64,000 nucleotides of DNA. Source: an uncultured Actinomycetota bacterium (GTDB lineage Bacteria; Actinomycetota; Actinomycetes; Actinomycetales; Dermatophilaceae). Shown one piece after another: positions 43,245 through 51,015 of the stretch. The notes under the pieces are model-generated. The model saw only the letters and a program-made list of their open reading frames with translations, searched no databases and had not been told where the DNA came from. The stretch spans positions 7,180 to 71,179 of the forward strand of contig CAVVYI010000027.1 in the NCBI GenBank assembly GCA_963752445.1, given 5' to 3'. Position 1 is the first letter of the stretch. Every line of letters starts with the position of its first letter. Both the position numbers and the translations under genes were made by a program.

Positions 43245-43349
43245 GGCGCCCGCTGCCCGGACCGCCGGGGCTGGCGAGCTCGGTTCGCGCCGCGGGGTCG
43301 CGCACCGGGCGGCGGGGCGGACGTCGTGCTGCGCCGGACAGGTGCCGCT

Positions 43350-43397
43350 CCGTCGTCCACAGGGGTGCCGCTCGCCCGCCGTCGTCCACAGATCCGG
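43350..43397 (+). promoter_or_regulatory. Tandem CCGTCGTCCACAG motif upstream of yraN-comM-dprA
   Basis: Exact 13-bp direct repeat at 43350-43362 and 43379-43391. Confidence 0.6.
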
Positions 43398-43444
43398 CCG
43401 CGCGGGGTGTCCCGTGCGCCGCGGCCGCCGGTTGGCTCCCACCC

Positions 43445-43837
43445 ATGACGCCCACCACGACCCCGGACGCCCGCCGACCCGACGCGGCTCCGGCTCGGGC
43501 GCTACGGCGAGGCCCTCGCGGCCCGCTACCTGCGCGAACGGGGACTGACCGTGCTCGAGCGCAACTGGCGCTGCGAGCACGGCGAGGTCGACATCGTCGC
43601 CCTCGACGGCGGCTGCCTCGTCGTCTGCGAGGTCAAGACCCGCCGCGGCACCGGCTTCGGCGACCCCGTCGAGGCGGTGACCGTGGCGAAGGCCCTGCGG
43701 CTGCGCCGGCTGGCCGCCGCCTACGCCCGGACCGCACCGGGCCGGCCGGCCGGCCTGCGGGTCGACGTCGTCGGGGTGCTCTGCCGGCCGCGGCCGAGCC
43801 GCCGCGGCTGCGCCACGTCGTCGGGGTGGGGTCGTGA
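43445..43837 (+). CDS. yraN: YraN family nuclease (apparent indels)
   Basis: [28 protein letters not shown] and CEVKTR. Confidence 0.9.
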
Positions 43838-45392
43838 CCCTCGGGCTCGGGCGCACCCGGTCGGTGGCGCTCACCGGGCTCGACGGCACCCTCGTCGACG
43901 TCGAGGCGCACATCGCCAGGGCCTGCCGTGCTTCATCGTCGGCGGGCTGCCGGACGCCGCGTGCGCGCAGGCCCCGGAGCGGGTGCGGGCGGCCGCCGCC
44001 ACGGCGCGGCCCCCGTCCCGCCGCACCGGGTCACCGTCAACCTCTCGCCGGCCTCGATCCCCAAGCGGGGCTCGGCCTTCGACCTCGCGCATCGCCGTCG
44101 CGGTCCTCGCCGCGGCCGGGGCCATCCGCCCGCGGCTCGTCGAGGACGTCGTCCACCTCGGCGAGCTCGCGCCTCGACGGCCGGCTGCGCGGGGTCCGCG
44201 GCGTCCTGCCGGCGGTGCTCGAGGCCGCGCGGCGCGGGGTGCGGCACGTCGTCGTCCCCGACGAGAACGTCGCCGAGGCCCAGCTCGTCGACCGAGGTCA
44301 TCGTCCACGGCGCCGCGCTCGCTCGCCGAGGTCGTGCGCTGGTACCGCGAGGCCGCGGCAGGGCGCGCCCCTCCCGGTGGCCGAGCCGGCGCCGCCGCGG
44401 CCCGCCGGCCGGGCGGTCGGGCCCCGACCTCGCCGACGTCGTCGGGCAGCACGAGGCCCGGGCGGCCCTCGAGCTCGCCGCGACCGGCGGCCCACCACCT
44501 GCTGCTGACCGGCCCCCGGGGTCGGCAAGACGATGCTCGCCGAGCGGCTCGTGACGATCCTGCCGCCGCTCGGCCGGGAGCGAGGCCCTCGAGGTCCACG
44601 CGGTGCGCTCGCTCGTCGCGCCCGGTCGGCGAGGTCGCCGAGCTCGACCGCACCCCGCCGTTCGTCGCACCGCACCACAGCACCTCGCGTCGCCGCCCTC
44701 GCCGGCGGCGGCTCCGGCGCGGTGCTGCCCGGTGCGGTGTCGCGGGCCCACCACGGCGTGCTCTTCCTCGACGAGGCGCCCGAGTTCCGGTCCTCGGTCC
44801 TGCAGAGCCCTGCGCCAGCCGCTGGAGTCGGGCGAGGTCGTCATCGCCCGGGCCCGCCAGGTCGTGCGCTACCCGGCCCGCTTCCTGCTCGTGCTCGCGG
44901 CCAACCCGTGCCCGTGCGGGCATGGCCTTCGGGCAAGGGGGCGGAGTGCACGTGCGCGCCCTCGAGCATCCGCGCCTACGCCGGCCGCGCTGTCCGGGCC
45001 GCTCCTGGACCGGGTCGACCTGCAGGTGCACGTCCCGCCGGTGCGCCGGGCCGCCTTCGCCGAGGAGGCGCGGCGAGACCAGCGCCGTCGTCGCGGCGCG
45101 GGTGGCGGCCGCCCGGGCGGCCCAGGCCGAGCGCTGGCCGCCGGCGGGTGGGGGGTCAACGGGCTCGTGCCCGGGCCACGTCCTGCGCCGGGCGCCCTGC
45201 CGCCTGCCCGGCCGGCGACCACGGTCGTCGTCGACCGCGCGCTCGACGCCGGCCGGCTCACCCTGCGGGGCTACGACCGGGTGCTGCGGGTCGCCTGGTC
45301 GGCCGCCGACCTCGCGGGGCGCACCGTGCCCTCGCGTGAGGACGTCGCGCGCCGGGCTGGCCCTGCGTCGGGGAGAGGGGGTGGCGGCATGA
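43834..45392 (+). CDS. comM: YifB/ComM Mg-chelatase-like AAA+ ATPase (many apparent indels)
   Basis: [63 protein letters not shown] and [10 protein letters not shown]. Confidence 0.9.
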
Positions 45393-46500
45393 CGGGTCCA
45401 CGCAGCCCGCGCGGGCCCGAGGACCGGTGGGCCCGGGTCGCGCTCTCCTTCCTCGTCGAGCCGGGAACGGCCGACGGTGCGCACGCTCGGTGGCCAACGC
45501 GGCGCCGGCCGCCCTCGCCGCCCTCCGGGCCCGGCGGGCCGGGGCGGCGCCGAGGTGTACGTGCCGGCTCGCCGAGCTCGACCTCGCGGCGCTCGTCGAC
45601 GCCGTCGCGCGAGGGCGTGCGCGTCCTGGTCCCCGGCGACCCCGAGTGGCCCCTGCCGCTCGACCGGCTCCGGCTCCCCGCCGTACTGCCTTTCGTCCGC
45701 GGGGACCCGACCTCGCGGCGCTCACGGACCGTGCGGTGGCGGTCGTCGGGGCGCGCGCGGCGACGGGTACGGGCTGCGGGTGGCCGCCGAGCTCGGGGAG
45801 GGCCTGGCGGCGCGGGGGTGGACCGTCGTGAGCGGGGCGGCCTTCGGCATCGACGCCGCCGCGCACCGGGGCGCCCTCGCCGCCGGGGCCCCACCGTGGC
45901 GGTCCTCGCCTGCGGGCTCGACGTGCGCCTACCCGCGCGCCCACGACGCGCTCTTCGGGCGCGTCGCCGGCTCGGGTGCGGTGGTCAGCGAGGTCCCCCG
46001 GGTCGCCCGTACCGGGGTCGGTTCCTCGCCCGCAACCGGATCATCGCGACTGCTGGCCCGCGGCCACCGTGGTCGTCGAGGCGGGGCTGCGCTCGGGGTC
46101 GCTCGCCACCGCCGCGCGAGGCCGCGGCACCACCTGCCGGTGGGCGCCGTCCCCGGGCCGGTGACCAGCGCGACCTCGGCGGGCTGCCACGAGCTCATCC
46201 GCGAGCGCGGGCCGTCCTCGTCACCGACGCCCCCGACGTCGTCGAGCTCGCCGGGCCGATCGGCGACGACTCCGCACCGCACGCGTGCCCGAGGCCCGCC
46301 CGACGGAGTCCTCCGACCCCGTCGAGTACGCCGTCTGGGCGGCCGCGCCGGTCCGCCGCGGCTGACCGCCGGAGCGGCTGGCCGTCGGTCGCCGGGGTCG
46401 AACCCCTCCGGGTGCCGCGGCGCTCGCGGTCCTCGAGACGCTCGGCTCGTCGAGCGGCCACAGGGGCGGTGGCGCAAGAGCGCCGACGGTCGCAACGCGA
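45389..46500 (+). CDS. dprA: DNA-processing protein DprA (many apparent indels; end approximate)
   Basis: [47 protein letters not shown] and [16 protein letters not shown]. Confidence 0.88.
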
Positions 46501-46620
46501 GGCTGATGCAACCGCGTGCGCGGCCGGCTCGTACGCGCCGGCCCGGCTCACCCGCTGGACCGAACGGGGCCTTTGCGGCGGTTCTCGTTGCGTTGCCGAC
46601 CGCGGTGCGACCGTGTCGAC

Positions 46621-47531
46621 GTGAGTGTCGTGAGCCACGAGGCGGTCTCCGCGTTCGAGCGCCACCTGCGCTCCGAACGCGGTCGGTCCGAGAACACCGT
46701 GCGCGCGTACGCGCGCGACGTCACCGCCTTCCTCGACGGCGCCGGCGGTCGACGACGACGCCGCCCTCCGCTCGGTGACCCTGGCCGACCTGCGGGCCTG
46801 GCTCGGGGCCGTGGCGCGGGGGGCGCGGCCCGCTCGACCTTGGCCCGCACCTCGGCGTCGCTGCGCACCTTCTTCCGCTGGTGCGAGCGCACCGGCCGGG
46901 TCGAGCACGACCCCTCCCTCCGGCTCGGGGCTCCCACGCGGCACCGGACCCTGCCGCCGGTGCTGTCCCAGCGGGACGCGGCCGGCTGCTCGACGTCGCC
47001 GGGGTGGCCGCCGACGACGACGACCCGCTCCACCTGCGCGACCGCGCCGCCGTCGAGGCTCCTCTACGCCACCGGCATCCGCGTCGGCGAGCTCACCGGG
47101 CTGGACCTCGACGACGTCGACCTCGACGACCGCGTGCTCCGGGTCGTCGGCAAGGGCGACAAGGAGCGCCGGGTCCCGTTCGGCGTCCCGGCGCGCGACG
47201 CCGTGCGTGGCTGGCTCGAGCGGGGGCGCCCGCTCCTCGCCACGGCGGCGAGCGGGCCGGCCCTCCTCCTCGGTCGCCGGGGCCGCGGGCCGACCCTCGA
47301 CAGGTCCGCGAGGCCGTGCACCGCCTCCTCGCCCACGTCGCCGACGCACCCGACCTCGGGCCGCACGGCCTGCGGCACAGCGCCGCCACCCACCTGCTGG
47401 AAGGGGGTGCGGACCTGCGGATGGTCCAGGAGCTGCTCGGCCACGCCTCGCTCGCCACGACCCAGATCTACACGCACGTGTCCGTCGACCGCCTCAAGCG
47501 GTCCTACACCCAGGCCCACCCCCGTGCCTGA
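46621..47531 (+). CDS. xerC: Tyrosine recombinase XerC (apparent indels)
   Basis: [49 protein letters not shown] and [15 protein letters not shown]. Syntenic with dprA and rpsB. Confidence 0.9.
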
Positions 47532-47594
47532 GGACCTCCGCCCGGGACGGGCGCGCCGGACCCGCAGCCCGCGGACTCGGGCTACTCGGAGTGG

Positions 47595-48974
47595 GTGTCC
47601 GAGGTGCGTCGGCTGTACGTCGAGCCCAAGACGGTCTCGGAGCTGCAGTACCCACAGGCCGACGCGATGACGAGGGGCACCCACGCGCACCCGCGGTCGG
47701 CTGCCCCGGTTCGGTCGCTCACGGCCGAGGCGGCAGCCGAGCGCCCCGGCGCCGCCGCGCCCCGGGCGACCGGCCTGGCCGAGCTCATCGCCCCGTCGGT
47801 CCCCGCCGCGGAGCCCCGCCGCCGCCTGTCGCGCCGGCGCCAGCGCGGCTCCCGGCGCGAGGCCGGAGCGCGCCGGAGCGCCGCTGCCGGGCACCAAGCC
47901 GAGGACGGGCCTGCGCCCCGTGTGGCCCGAGCCGCCGGTGGAGGCGACGCGGAGCCGGTGCTCGAGGAAGAGGCCGAGGTCGGGCGAGCACAAGCCAAGC
48001 CGGCGATCGGCTGGACCCCGTGTGGACCGAGCCGCCCGTGGAAGACGATGGGGAGCCGGAGCTCGAGGGGGACGTCGAGCTCGAGCCGGAAGCCGTGCGG
48101 ACGCCCGGTGGCCCGAGCCGCCGGTGGAGACGATAAGCCGGAAGCCGATGTCGAGGCGGAGGGCGAGCCCGAGCCGGAGGTCGGCAGGCGGCCTCGGGCC
48201 CGAGCCGCCGGGGGATGCCGAGCCGGAGCCGGTGCTCGAGGCGGAGGTCGTGCCCGAGCCGGAGCTCGAGCCGCCGCCCGTGTGGGCTGAGCCGCCGCGT
48301 GGAGGACCCGACGCCGGAGCCGGCGCTCGAAGCCGAGGCCGAGGTCCTGACCGAGCCCGAGGGGGTGCTGGAGCCCGTTTCGACGGAGCCGCGCGTGGAG
48401 GACGGCGAGCCGGAGCGGGCGCCGGAGCCGGAGGCGGTGCCGAGGACGAGCCCGGCCGGAGCCCGAGCCGGCAACAAGAAGCTCGGGCCGCGGCGTCGTT
48501 CCTGGTGGGACGAGAGCGCCTCGACGATGACGACCTCGACGAGCGGGACGGAAACCCCTGTCGTCGCGGCACCCGAGCCATCGTCCTCGAGGCGGCCAGG
48601 GAGGTCGGGACCCGCCGGCCACCGGCCAGAAGGCCGACCTGCCGCGGCGCGGGGACCGTCACCCGCAGGCCGGCCGGCCAGCACGAGCGGCCGCCCCGCG
48701 CGACCCGGTGCCGGCGACCGCGCCCCCGCGACCTGCCGTCTGCCCGCCGCCGCCCCGCCGGCGGAGCCGGGCCGACCGACCACCCGGGCCGAGGCCCGCG
48801 CCGCCGCGTCGACCCGCTCGTCCGGTCGCGGCCGCCGTCGAGCCCTGGCCGGCCATCGTCGTGCTGCTCGTCGTCATGGCCGCGACCTGGTTCCTCCCCC
48901 GGCCGGACCAGTCCGCGTCGACCGGGCCGACGACCGCGGAGCAGCTTCTGCCGCGGCCGTTCAACCCAACTTGA
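47595..48974 (+). CDS. Hypothetical Pro/Glu-rich repeat protein with C-terminal TM helix (many apparent indels)
   Basis: MSEVRRLYVEPK start, PVW(P/T/A)EPPVE..EPEPVLE repeats, and end WPAIVVLLVVMAATWFLPRP...PFNPT*. Confidence 0.45.
47917..48420 (+). repeat. Six degenerate tandem units of ~85-100 bp
   Basis: CCCGTGTGGCCCGAGCCGCCGGTGGAG-like anchor at about 47917, 48017, 48104, 48192, 48277 and 48374. Confidence 0.7.
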
Positions 48975-49000
48975 CCGTGCCGGCACTCCCGTGCCGCGAC

Positions 49001-49702
49001 TCACGCGCACCGATCCCACCGCGCGGGCCGTCGCCCCAAGGGGCAACAGGCGGACCCGTCCCCCTACGGTCAGCAACGGCCAGGGTCGAGGTAGCCGCCG
49101 TCGCGGCGGGCTCCCAGGTGGAGGCCGAGCGGCCCCCGCAGTGGCGATCCGCGCCGGGCGTGACTGCGCCGCCGGGCGCGCCCGCCTCCGCCCCAAGGAC
49201 GTCGCCGACAGCCACGAGGTCTCCAGCACGCAGCGAGGACCGCACGGGTTCGTAGGTGCTCGGGAGGCCGCCGGTGCTGCACGGTGACCGTGCCGCGTCC
49301 GGCGACGGTGCCGGCGTGCGTCACCCGGCCGGCCTCGACGGCGAGCACCGGCGTGCCGGGAGCGGCGGCGAGGTCGAGCCCCCGGTGGCCGGAACCGTAC
49401 GGCGACGCCGGGGCGACGAAGCGCCGGAGCACGTCGGGCCGGGGCGCGAGCGGCCAGTGCCAGCGGGTGGCGAGCACGGCCCCGGCTGCCGGGCACCCGG
49501 ACGCGGGCCGACGGGAGCACGATCCGGCCGGCCCCGGCGGCTCGTGGGCGCCGGAGGGCGCGGCCGCCCGCAGGGCGTCGACACGAGGCGCGCTCGGCGG
49601 TGGCGCCCCGCCGGGGCCAAGGCACCGATCGCCGCGGCACCGTGGCCGCGGCCACCGAGCGCGGCGGAGGCCAGCGCGACGAGGGCGGTGCCGGGGGGGC
49701 AT
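49001..49702 (-). CDS. M23 family peptidoglycan metallopeptidase (apparent indels; ends approximate)
   Basis: WHWPLAP, PYGSGHRGLDL (HxxxD), AGTVAGRGTVTVQH and LHLGARRDGGYLDP. Confidence 0.82.
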
Positions 49703-49749
49703 CACCTGCCCAGAGCCTGACCCGGGTGCCCGCCGCGCCGGCTCGGGAC

Positions 49750-49794
49750 CCGGAGCTGTGGACGACGCGGCCGCGGCGCGGACCTGTGGACGCC
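49750..49794 (-). promoter_or_regulatory. Tandem G(T/G)CGTCCACAG motif upstream of the M23 gene
   Basis: CTGTGGACGACG at 49756-49767 and CTGTGGACGCC at 49784-49794 on the + strand. Confidence 0.55.
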
Positions 49795-49854
49795 CGCCCC
49801 GCCCCCGACGCCACGCTCCGCCCGCCGCGGCCCCCGGGCGCAGCCGGCCGCGCG

Positions 49855-51015
49855 TCAGCCGGGGCGCAGGCCGGCGAGCCGGCGGCACCCCTCGTCGAGC
49901 ACCTCCGGCCTTGCAGAAGGCGAACCGGACGAGGGTGCGGGCGGCGTCGGGGTCGTCGTGGAACGCCGAGGCCGGGACGCCGACCACCCCGACCCGGTCG
50001 GGCAGCTCGAGGCAGAGCTCCGCGTCGGTGACCCCGAGCGGTGCGGCGTCCGCGAGGACGAAGTAGCCGCCCTCCGGCACCGGCGGCTCGAAGCCCGCCG
50101 CGCGCAGCCCCGCCACGAGCCGGTCGCGCTTGCCTGCATCGACGCGGCGAGCCCGTCGAACACCGCGTCCGGCAGCCCGAGTCCGACCGCGATCGCGGGC
50201 TGGAACGGTCCCGACCCGACGAACGTCAGGTACTGCTTGACCCCCCGCACCGCGGCGACCGCCTCCGCCGGGCCGATCACCCAGCCGACCTTCCAGCCCG
50301 TCGTCGCGAACGTCTTGCCGCCCGAGGAGATGGTGAGGGTGCGCTCGGCCATCCCCGGCAGCGTCGCCATCGGCACGTGCCGCCGGCCGTCGAAGGCCAG
50401 GTGCTCGTACACCTCGTCGGTCACCACCCAGGCGTCGTGCTCGCGGGCCAGCTCGGCGACGAGCTCGAGCTCCGCGCGGGTGAACACCTTGCCGGTCGGG
50501 TTGTGCGGCGTGTTGAGCAGCACCATCCGCGTGCGGTCCGAGAACGCGGCGCGCAGCGAGGCCTCGTCGACCGCGAAGTCCGGGAAGCGCAGCAGGGAGG
50601 TGCGCCGGACGCCGCCGGCGAGGGCGATGGTCGCCGCGTAGCTGTCGTAGTACGGCTCGAACGTCACGACCTCGTCGCCCGGGCGCACGAGGGCGAGCAC
50701 GGTGGCCGCGATGGCCTCGGTGGCCCCGACCGTGACGAGCACCTCGCGGGCGGGGTCGACCGGCAGGCCGTAGAACCGCTCCTGGTGGGCGGCGACCGCG
50801 CCGCGCAGCTCGGGGAAACCGATCCCGGGCGGGTACTGGTTGCGTCCCGAGCGGATGGCCTCGACGGCGGCGTCGAGGACCTCCCGCGGGCCGTCGGTGT
50901 CGGGGAAGCCCTGCCCGAGGTTGACGGCGTCCTTCTCCAGCGCCAGCTGGGTCATCGTCGCGAAGATCGTCGTGCCGAACTCGGTCAGTGCGGGGTGGCC
51001 GGGGATCGAGGGCAT
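49855..51015 (-). CDS. PLP-dependent class I/II aminotransferase (DapC/YbdL-like)
   Basis: AVNLGQGFPD, NTPHNPTG, TDEVYEHL and SSGGKTFATTGWKVGW. Confidence 0.9.
   Translation of the reverse strand: MPSIPGHPALTEFGTTIFATMTQLALEKDAVNLGQGFPDTDGPREVLDAAVEAIRSGRNQYPPGIGFPELRGAVAAHQERFYGLPVDPAREVLVTVGATEAIAATVLALVRPGDEVVTFEPYYDSYAATIALAGGVRRTSLLRFPDFAVDEASLRAAFSDRTRMVLLNTPHNPTGKVFTRAELELVAELAREHDAWVVTDEVYEHLAFDGRRHVPMATLPGMAERTLTISSGGKTFATTGWKVGWVIGPAEAVAAVRGVKQYLTFVGSGPFQPAIAVGLGLPDAVFDGLAASMQASATGSWRGCARRASSRRCRRAATSSSRTPHRSGSPTRSSASSCPTGSGWSASRPRRSTTTPTPPAPSSGSPSARPEVLDEGCRRLAGLRPG

Follow-up and report, generated by a model that had tools for sequence, protein, structure and literature searches.

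Several competence regulons are known from other bacteria, including the CRP-S sites of Haemophilus and Vibrio, which act with Sxy/TfoX, the ComK boxes of Bacillus subtilis, and the cin boxes of streptococcal sigma-X. Competence control by sigma-X and ComK is also treated in PMC8467076. In the actinobacterium Micrococcus luteus, transformation requires Tad genes and comEC, and a ComK homolog is absent according to PMC4322843. Mutations that derepress comEA in this species map to Mlut_14660 and the divergent SAF/CpaE operon (PMC8467076), and its upstream competence regulators were stated to be unidentified in January 2026 (PMC12849477). YraN and ComM have been shown in other bacteria to process the D-loop of transformation (bioRxiv 10.1101/2024.02.06.579203). 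The initiator DnaA, especially in its ADP form, is a transcription activator elsewhere, and the review that describes this does not contain the word 'competence' in its available text (PMC8203912).

The stretch analyzed here (the window) comprises 64,000 nucleotides (nt) from an uncultured Actinomycetota bacterium of the Dermatophilaceae (GenBank assembly GCA_963752445.1, contig CAVVYI010000027.1, positions 7,180 to 71,179 of the forward strand). A TCCACAG box occurs as a pair upstream of its yraN-comM-dprA genes, and again upstream of a convergent gene of the M23 peptidase family. An earlier note on this DNA had proposed a candidate competence-type regulon, and all three of the refutation tests that could be computed came out in favor of it. 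The paired motif is very probably a conserved promoter module placed before DNA-uptake and recombination genes, and the regulon and its activator geometry are considered real with the same high confidence. The best explanation, which is favored with modest confidence, is that the box likely serves as an activator site through which a natural-competence regulon of the Actinomycetia is switched on, with DnaA as the probable binding protein.

The genome that holds the window (G000) has 4.09 Mb and 74.6% GC, and is 80% complete and frameshifted. Judged by one conserved protein, its nearest named relatives are Phycicoccus, Nostocoides and Oryzobacter. The word count alone was uninformative: GTCCACAG occurs four times in the 64-kb window, which is no excess (2.4 expected; 18 of 100 shuffles reach four), and 162 times in the genome (129 expected). 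The genome scan for paired TCCACAG, as the earlier note had suggested, revealed 15 direct pairs at exactly 29 base pairs (bp). The other 292 spacings between 8 and 300 bp hold a mean of 0.055 direct pairs and a maximum of one, and the Poisson P of the 29-bp peak is about 3e-29 after correction. No 29-bp peak was found for six control words in the whole genome, and inverted TCCACAG pairs showed no spacing peak in G000. Two of the 15 pairs are haplotype duplicates (contigs C35 and C22), and therefore 13 loci are distinct. The half-sites are conserved and the spacers between the boxes are not; the motif is therefore not a dispersed repeat, and this test failed to refute the regulon. Conservation of a whole unit independent of gene class, as in a repetitive extragenic palindrome (REP), a miniature inverted-repeat transposable element (MITE) or the end of an insertion sequence (IS), was not found.

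The frames downstream of the pairs were scanned with Pfam and NCBIfam (the duplicate haplotype L019 was left out of the Pfam scan). The enrichment at DNA-uptake genes was borne out: comEA-comEC, comF, tad, flp, ssb and recA are all preceded by boxes. Core transformation genes stand behind 6 of the 13 distinct pairs in G000, which are comEA-comEC, recA-recX, an ssb paralog, ssd-tadA, a Flp pilin gene with TadE, and yraN-comM-dprA-xerC. The other seven targets are two AbiEi_4 genes, a weak REase_MTES_1575 match, HTH_31, SprT-like, DUF4192 and an alpha/beta hydrolase. Scanning this genome with position weights added comF (29 bp, TCCCCA variant), the M23 gene (28 bp; C35 has 29 bp), a SAF/CpaB gene with a spacing of 30 bp and an unknown gene with one of 31 bp. 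Single boxes were found upstream of the cpaB-like/cpaE operon and of priA. The priA box (G000:C13:466982, minus strand) lies 39 nt ahead of TAGGTT and an in-frame GTG. Seven single-box candidates were scanned and priA alone fits; the S51 peptidase, DAO and phosphatidylserine (PS) decarboxylase candidates look like chance.

Similar gene sets were found in other genomes. In the complete genome G011, for example, the scan covered each of the 20 pairs, and their targets include comEA, recA, two ssb genes, tad, flp, comF, yraN-comM, M23, cpaB-cpaE, DUF4192, SprT, HTH_31, a hydrolase, two AbiEi_4 and two HNH genes; two pairs had no clear match. The sites scanned in G021 (13) and G020 (6) contribute comEA, flp, M23, ssb, yraN, DUF4192 and a prepilin peptidase. 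The prepilin peptidase A24 was not found in the incomplete and frameshifted G000, and G020 has one behind a pair. In G157, a single contig from another family, 25 of the 30 pairs have the 29-bp spacing. Twenty of these 25 were examined: the targets are recA, two ssb genes, a ParA-like ssd-type gene, five AbiEi_4, two Uma2 and HTH_31, a further pair is internal to an MMPL gene, and the remaining seven gave no clear match. The yraN gene of G157 also carries the pair. In each of G000, G011, G021 and G157 the module stands before several AbiEi_4/DUF559, Uma2 and HNH paralogs, and this nuclease-like gene family therefore appears to have expanded under module control.

The module is also conserved among the genomes of the class. 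The class surveys used the best-scoring loci of each family search and 20 loci chosen to cover further families; the own-genome locus L042 was left out of the class tallies, the loci L314, L419 and L422 of unpublished genomes were set aside, and G109, G162, G205 and G214 are the basis of no claim. Exact 29-bp pairs occur in 16 of 16 same-genus genomes, with 2-21 copies each (0-1 for the reversed control), in 3 of 8 genomes from elsewhere in the family, and in 4 of 16 from other families. The motif is conserved upstream of orthologs: in 61 of 77 Actinomycetia genomes, TCCACA was found no more than 260 nt upstream of the YraN domain. The control counts were 25 of 395 for other windows of the yraN loci, and 4 of 28 for genomes from other classes. 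Three of these four non-Actinomycetia loci belong to one family, f73 (L309, L312, L316), and have the box at a similar distance from the gene. The box upstream of ssd in the Tad operon was found in 23 of 29 cases versus 3 of 29 for the housekeeping gene gap. The spacing varies by lineage, for example 29 bp in G000 and 27 bp in G113. In G136 and G140, tandem arrays of box plus spacer were observed, with periods of 15 to 31 bp. At the loci L282-L294 of G021 the spacer holds a conserved CCCATGACA that ends 11 bp past the distal box, which is possibly a degenerate third box or the site of a second factor.

The boxes are also placed at a fixed distance from a promoter-like hexamer. A.A...T hexamer lies 36-39 nt past the end of the proximal box in 15 of 20 promoters of G000, and 37-40 nt past it in 32 of 39 promoters of three relatives. 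In the pooled set, 83 of 98 promoters have it at 36-40 nt, versus 9.6% in shuffles. Its first base is C in 61%, G in 28% and T in 11%; T is enriched (43%) 23 nt upstream of the hexamer, at the expected start of the -35 element, and the start codon is often 12-13 nt from the hexamer start. The hexamers are thus predicted to be weakened -10 elements of the housekeeping sigma factor at mostly leaderless genes, with predicted transcription starts. The fixed distance suggests the geometry of an upstream activator that contacts RNA polymerase. The comEA promoters of two Mycobacterium-like genomes depart from this with a distance of 49 nt, that is 38 + 11, one extra helical turn. The proximal box is positioned in 74 promoters, of which 49 have a direct distal box, 5 an inverted one and 20 none; the direct ones are spaced by 17-19 bp in 9 cases, 21-22 bp in 5, 26-31 bp in 32, and other distances in 3. 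The promoter element of PafBC is TGTCGG-N10-TANNNT. A PafBC regulon was considered and rejected: just 5 of 83 promoters carry TGTCGG some 10 nt ahead of the -10. The recA promoter of G000 (C20:522430-522545) combines a LexA-like palindrome with the 29-bp pair and a PafBC-type element on one -10.

The features of the window that belong to the two promoters and their genes are as follows.

43353..43362, plus strand: distal box TCGTCCACAG of the yraN-comM-dprA-xerC promoter; the identical 10-mer is found in the own oriC
43382..43391, plus strand: proximal box TCGTCCACAG, 29 bp past the distal box; kept in haplotype C35 and across the class
43432..43437, plus strand: putative -10 hexamer TTGGCT, 40 nt past the proximal box, without the usual A at position 2
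43445..43837, plus strand: yraN (UPF0102 nuclease), probably leaderless; frameshifted in the assembly; PF02021, E 3e-19
43834..45392, plus strand: comM (YifB-family Mg-chelatase-like ATPase), in frameshifted pieces; PF13541, PF01078, PF13335
45389..46500 (end approximate), plus strand: dprA, in frameshifted pieces; PF02481 in two frames
46620..47531 (start approximate), plus strand: xerC-like tyrosine recombinase, frameshifted; PF00589, PF02899
49000..49705 (end approximate), minus strand: M23-family secreted protein, frameshifted; PF01551; start GTG at 49705 or ATG at 49702
49714..49719, minus strand: putative -10 hexamer CAGGCT of the M23 promoter, 36 nt past the proximal box
49756..49765, minus strand: proximal box TCGTCCACAG of the M23 promoter; the M23 pair is also present in G011 and G021
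49784..49793, minus strand: distal box GCGTCCACAG of the M23 promoter, 28 bp upstream; in C35 at 29 bp, as CCGTCCCCAG

The coordinates that had been claimed for the motif copies were reproduced. The yraN-upstream pair is CCGTCGTCCACAG at 43350-43362 and 43379-43391 on the plus strand, and the M23-upstream pair has its cores at 49756-49763 and 49784-49791 on the minus strand, with a spacing of 28 bp. The gene-proximal copies of the two promoters agree at 17 of 18 nt; the distal M23 copy has only CGTCCACAG in common with the other copies. The ATG positions (43445 for yraN, 49702 for M23) and the hexamer positions (TTGGCT at 43432-43437, CAGGCT at 49719-49714) are likewise as described. The distance of 54 bp from box to ATG also holds at both genes; however, the equality of the two is a coincidence, as the promoters range from 49 to 54 nt. 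In haplotype C35 the ATG of the M23 gene aligns with the GTG at 49705 of the window, and the box pair there has a spacing of 29 bp. The TTGGCT hexamer without the A was also found in the yraN promoter of G011.

Contig C35 represents a second haplotype of the window region with intact open reading frames. It shares 85-97% identity with the window contig (C27) in long blocks, and 75-84% over positions 43300-50000; contig C22 duplicates part of C28. The assembly is a mixture of strains, and indel frameshifts are numerous in the window copy. The intact C35 copies of yraN and comM clear the cut-offs of NCBIfam YraN and TIGR00368, respectively. The best match of the xerC-like fragment is TIGR02224, but it is below the cut-off; the gene is probably the final gene of the yraN-comM-dprA operon. 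The yraN-comM stretch has no listed RNA holder. Positions 47580-49290, which separate xerC from the M23 gene, hold a long low-complexity frame rich in Glu and Pro that is strongly divergent between the two haplotypes; no Pfam match was found on the minus-strand frame scanned there.

The M23 gene had been called a wall-opening peptidase. Its orthologs on C35, G011 and G021 have an intact HxxxD motif (HRGLD/HRGID); in all three the HxH motif is replaced by CLH or CVH. HxxxD and HxH are the zinc-binding and catalytic motifs of active M23 endopeptidases. The name is thus doubtful; the gene belongs to the regulon, and the hydrolase activity of its product is uncertain.

The identity of the box points to DnaA. 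Its consensus is (T/C)(C/T)(G/A)TCC(A/C)CA(G). It had been described as one mismatch from a DnaA box, and the likeness turned out to be closer: the own oriC (the dnaA-dnaN gap) contains TCGTCCACAG, CCGTCCACAG and TTGTCCACAG, which are the same 10-mers as in the promoters. When 28 oriC regions were compared with 58 yraN upstream regions for 6-mer enrichment and flank frequencies, the two sets agreed in the top 6-mers, the flank profile, the G after the 9-mer, and the tolerated TCCCCA. A flank matrix built only from the oriC of other genomes scored 30 promoter half-sites far above 950 genomic TCCACA words (P 7e-14). Low-GC members of the class have a perfect TTATCCACA, and TTGTCCACA is a listed high-affinity DnaA box of Mycobacterium and Streptomyces (PMC4285127). 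G000 has one DnaA domain IV gene, which is intact, including its recognition helix; no second gene was found in most of 46 class genomes, and three showed two matches. MtrA (GTCACAGCG) was rejected as reader because its motif differs. Irregular box clusters were observed upstream of dnaB and nrdR in G000 (C11:128549-128720 and C18:114248-114320), and the dnaB cluster matches the strongest published mycobacterial DnaA site.

Published data on DnaA binding are also partly consistent. Purified DnaA of Mycobacterium tuberculosis weakly enriched a site 92 nt upstream of Rv2415c/comEA by 3.6-7.2x at 300 nM (PMC7738170 Table S8), and a 'DnaA box' was remarked in the ssbB promoter of Streptomyces coelicolor (PMC3616714). 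In Rhodoluna lacicola, comEC, dprA and the tad genes are co-induced (PMC8591293).

If DnaA is the reader, it might act at the boxes as a class I activator that recruits RNA polymerase. The proximal box would lie at about -60 to -51 and the distal box at about -89 to -80; these positions relative to the start follow from reading the hexamer as the -10 of genes that are mostly leaderless. Assistance to DnaA would come from the second box, which lies farther upstream by about 18 or 28-29 bp, spacings that differ by one helical turn, and competence would be tied to the free or ADP-bound DnaA pool once replication slows. The HTH_17 and CpaB-CpaE module, which controls comEA in M. luteus and is itself boxed, might be a lineage-specific feedback arm and not the reader. 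That DnaA serves as the class-wide master activator, on helically phased boxes at about -55/-85 of 15-25 weakened promoters, with an essential excisionase-like protein and CpaB/CpaE feedback in some lineages, is a tentative model that falls just short of probable.

Several observations weigh against DnaA as the activator, or against the strength of the case. The comEA site ranks low among many weak DnaA sites, and the strong M. tuberculosis sites are five others, with 22-88x enrichment for the wild type at 300 nM; Table S8 has no rows for Rv2898, Rv366x, Rv3242, Rv289x or recA (PMC7738170). In chromatin immunoprecipitation (ChIP) of M. smegmatis DnaA during exponential growth, only the five strong sites of PMC7738170 are named, and nine weak peaks are unnamed. 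From the RNA sequencing of dnaA mutants in the same paper, the I282T mutant (six genes) and the shared list were considered: dnaB is down in I282T, Rv2415c, Rv2898c and Rv3242c, whose basal expression is low, are unchanged, and Rv3660c is slightly up. The literature on DnaA therefore leans weakly in favor for binding and is neutral to negative for expression, because comEA is bound weakly but the I282T expression of three targets is unchanged. A co-factor would be needed, as DnaA is a housekeeping protein but M. luteus competence is nutrient-gated and heterogeneous (PMC12849477). The genes co-induced in Rhodoluna are not co-expressed in Aurantimicrobium (A. photophilum) (PMC8591293). In the sequences themselves, the TCCCCA variant makes up 39% at oriC versus 12% at promoters, and the 20 of 74 promoters without a distal box have a single box only. 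In the Mycobacterium-like G114 and G153 (L079, L136) both yraN boxes are inverted, with a PafBC-type element present; their comEA boxes are direct (49 bp), as is the ssd box of G114. Moreover, the P values overstate the evidence, because the sampled genomes are related.

The likely order of candidate readers is DnaA, then an unknown activator, then a repressive or broader repair role, and finally HTH_17. The second of these, a dedicated activator that reads the same regulon and geometry through a site converged on the DnaA box, is rather unlikely. The evidence for the regulon and its geometry fits it equally, and it would account for a dnaA point mutant that leaves the regulon promoters unchanged and for mycobacterial DnaA maps with nearly no binding at them, as well as for the lineage-specific spacing and the conserved spacer element of G021. 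However, the match with oriC reaches into the flanks and the tolerated variant, the low-GC members keep the perfect DnaA box, a second DnaA domain IV gene was not found in G000 or in most of the 46 class genomes, and no candidate for such an activator is in hand.

It is improbable that DnaA is a repressor or a sensor of the replication state with another inducer, or that the module serves a broader DNA-salvage or repair programme and not competence proper. DnaA is able to both repress and activate nrdAB according to its nucleotide state (PMC8203912), and the slight rise of Rv3660c in I282T (PMC7738170) would fit repression. Many of the targets are AbiEi_4/DUF559, Uma2, HNH, SprT and priA genes, and the PafBC-type element accompanies 5 of 83 promoters. 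However, a repressor has no need of a spacing of 38 +/- 1 bp to a weakened -10, the boxes lie outside the core promoter with no overlap, and the uptake-specific comEA-comEC, comF, tad and flp are core members.

Still more improbable is a reading of the direct repeats by the ortholog of M. luteus Mlut_14660, a small excisionase-like protein of the HTH_17 type. Mutations in Mlut_14660 and in the leader raise the activity of the comEA promoter, and the gene is undeletable (PMC8467076). An ortholog was found in the same arrangement in G000 (C20:242763-242948), and boxes lie upstream of the HTH_17 gene in 27 of 30 loci. However, a search with a profile of 19 orthologs found no ortholog in G157, G141, G113, G136, G140, G146 and G114, where only paralog-level matches occurred (35-46 versus 96-127 bits). 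Because these seven genomes keep the boxes, HTH_17 is not an obligate reader; G157, for example, lacks a detected ortholog, yet has most of its pairs at 29 bp, before recA, ssb, the ssd-type gene and yraN. Reduced HTH_17 function raises expression, which fits a negative role and not an activator at about -55. The protein is more plausibly a member of the regulon that acts negatively in some lineages. Finally, an origin of the boxes by chance in GC-rich DNA, or from a family of dispersed repeats, is effectively refuted, since the near-expected count of the 8-mer, the duplicated promoters of some paralog families and the tandem arrays in G136 and G140 stand against a spacing peak that control words lack, unconserved spacers, and a gene-specific conservation exceeding that of the gap control.

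The box module, with DnaA as its favored reader, is likely to be the long-sought switch of natural transformation in Actinobacteria. What it offers is a precise cis element with its geometry, a list of regulon genes, a named candidate for the reader, and candidate roles for the DUF4192, SprT-like, AbiEi_4/DUF559, Uma2 and M23 genes. The uptake programme is apparently wired across most of the class, though few of its members are known to be transformable, and the module could aid the genetic tractability of harmless soil and industrial actinobacteria. Should DnaA prove to be the reader, horizontal gene transfer would be linked to chromosome replication in a new way; if it is the master activator, uptake and recombination would be coupled directly to the replication state.

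The known DnaA-activated promoters (nrdAB of Escherichia coli; gcrA, ftsZ, mipZ and podJ of Caulobacter; sda of B. subtilis; PMC8203912) also have pairs of DnaA boxes upstream, and activation dependent on the nucleotide state is a known mechanism in these systems. However, the direct regulons known for DnaA have few members, which have to do with replication, with nucleotides or with the cell cycle, whereas here 15-25 promoters share one rigid geometry. The mycobacterial DnaA sites (PMC7738170) and the S. coelicolor ssbB box (PMC3616714) are the same box at one regulon member each (the weak comEA row and ssbB), and the dnaB-upstream cluster of PMC7738170 is present in G000 too; the available parts of the two papers do not tie the box to a regulon or to competence, and DnaA is unmentioned in the available text of PMC6667448. 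No description of the regulon was found in the literature covered, which did not extend to subscription papers and bioRxiv supplements; the earlier note, too, knew of no described actinobacterial regulon with this signature. The competence system of M. luteus (tad-1/tad-2, comEA/EC, Mlut_14660, Mlut_14650/40) has the same gene set, compared by genes, and its HTH_17/cpaB-cpaE locus has a box-bearing ortholog in G000; a cis element is not reported in the available parts of the three papers (PMC4322843, PMC8467076, PMC12849477).

The PafBC element also represents an activator-dependent use of the housekeeping -10, and co-occurs with the boxes at recA and HNH genes; it lies near -26, unlike the boxes, and only at the few promoters mentioned above. 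The CRP-S, ComK and sigma-X regulons have one upstream motif at pilus genes, comEA/comEC/comF, dprA, ssbB, comM, recA and a wall-related gene, as was found here. The present regulon differs from all three in its motif, which is the origin box, and in its Tad/Flp pilus; it works like those of the CRP-S or ComK type and is not a member of their families. The nearest logic is that of CRP-S, in which a housekeeping factor acts on variant sites together with a co-factor.

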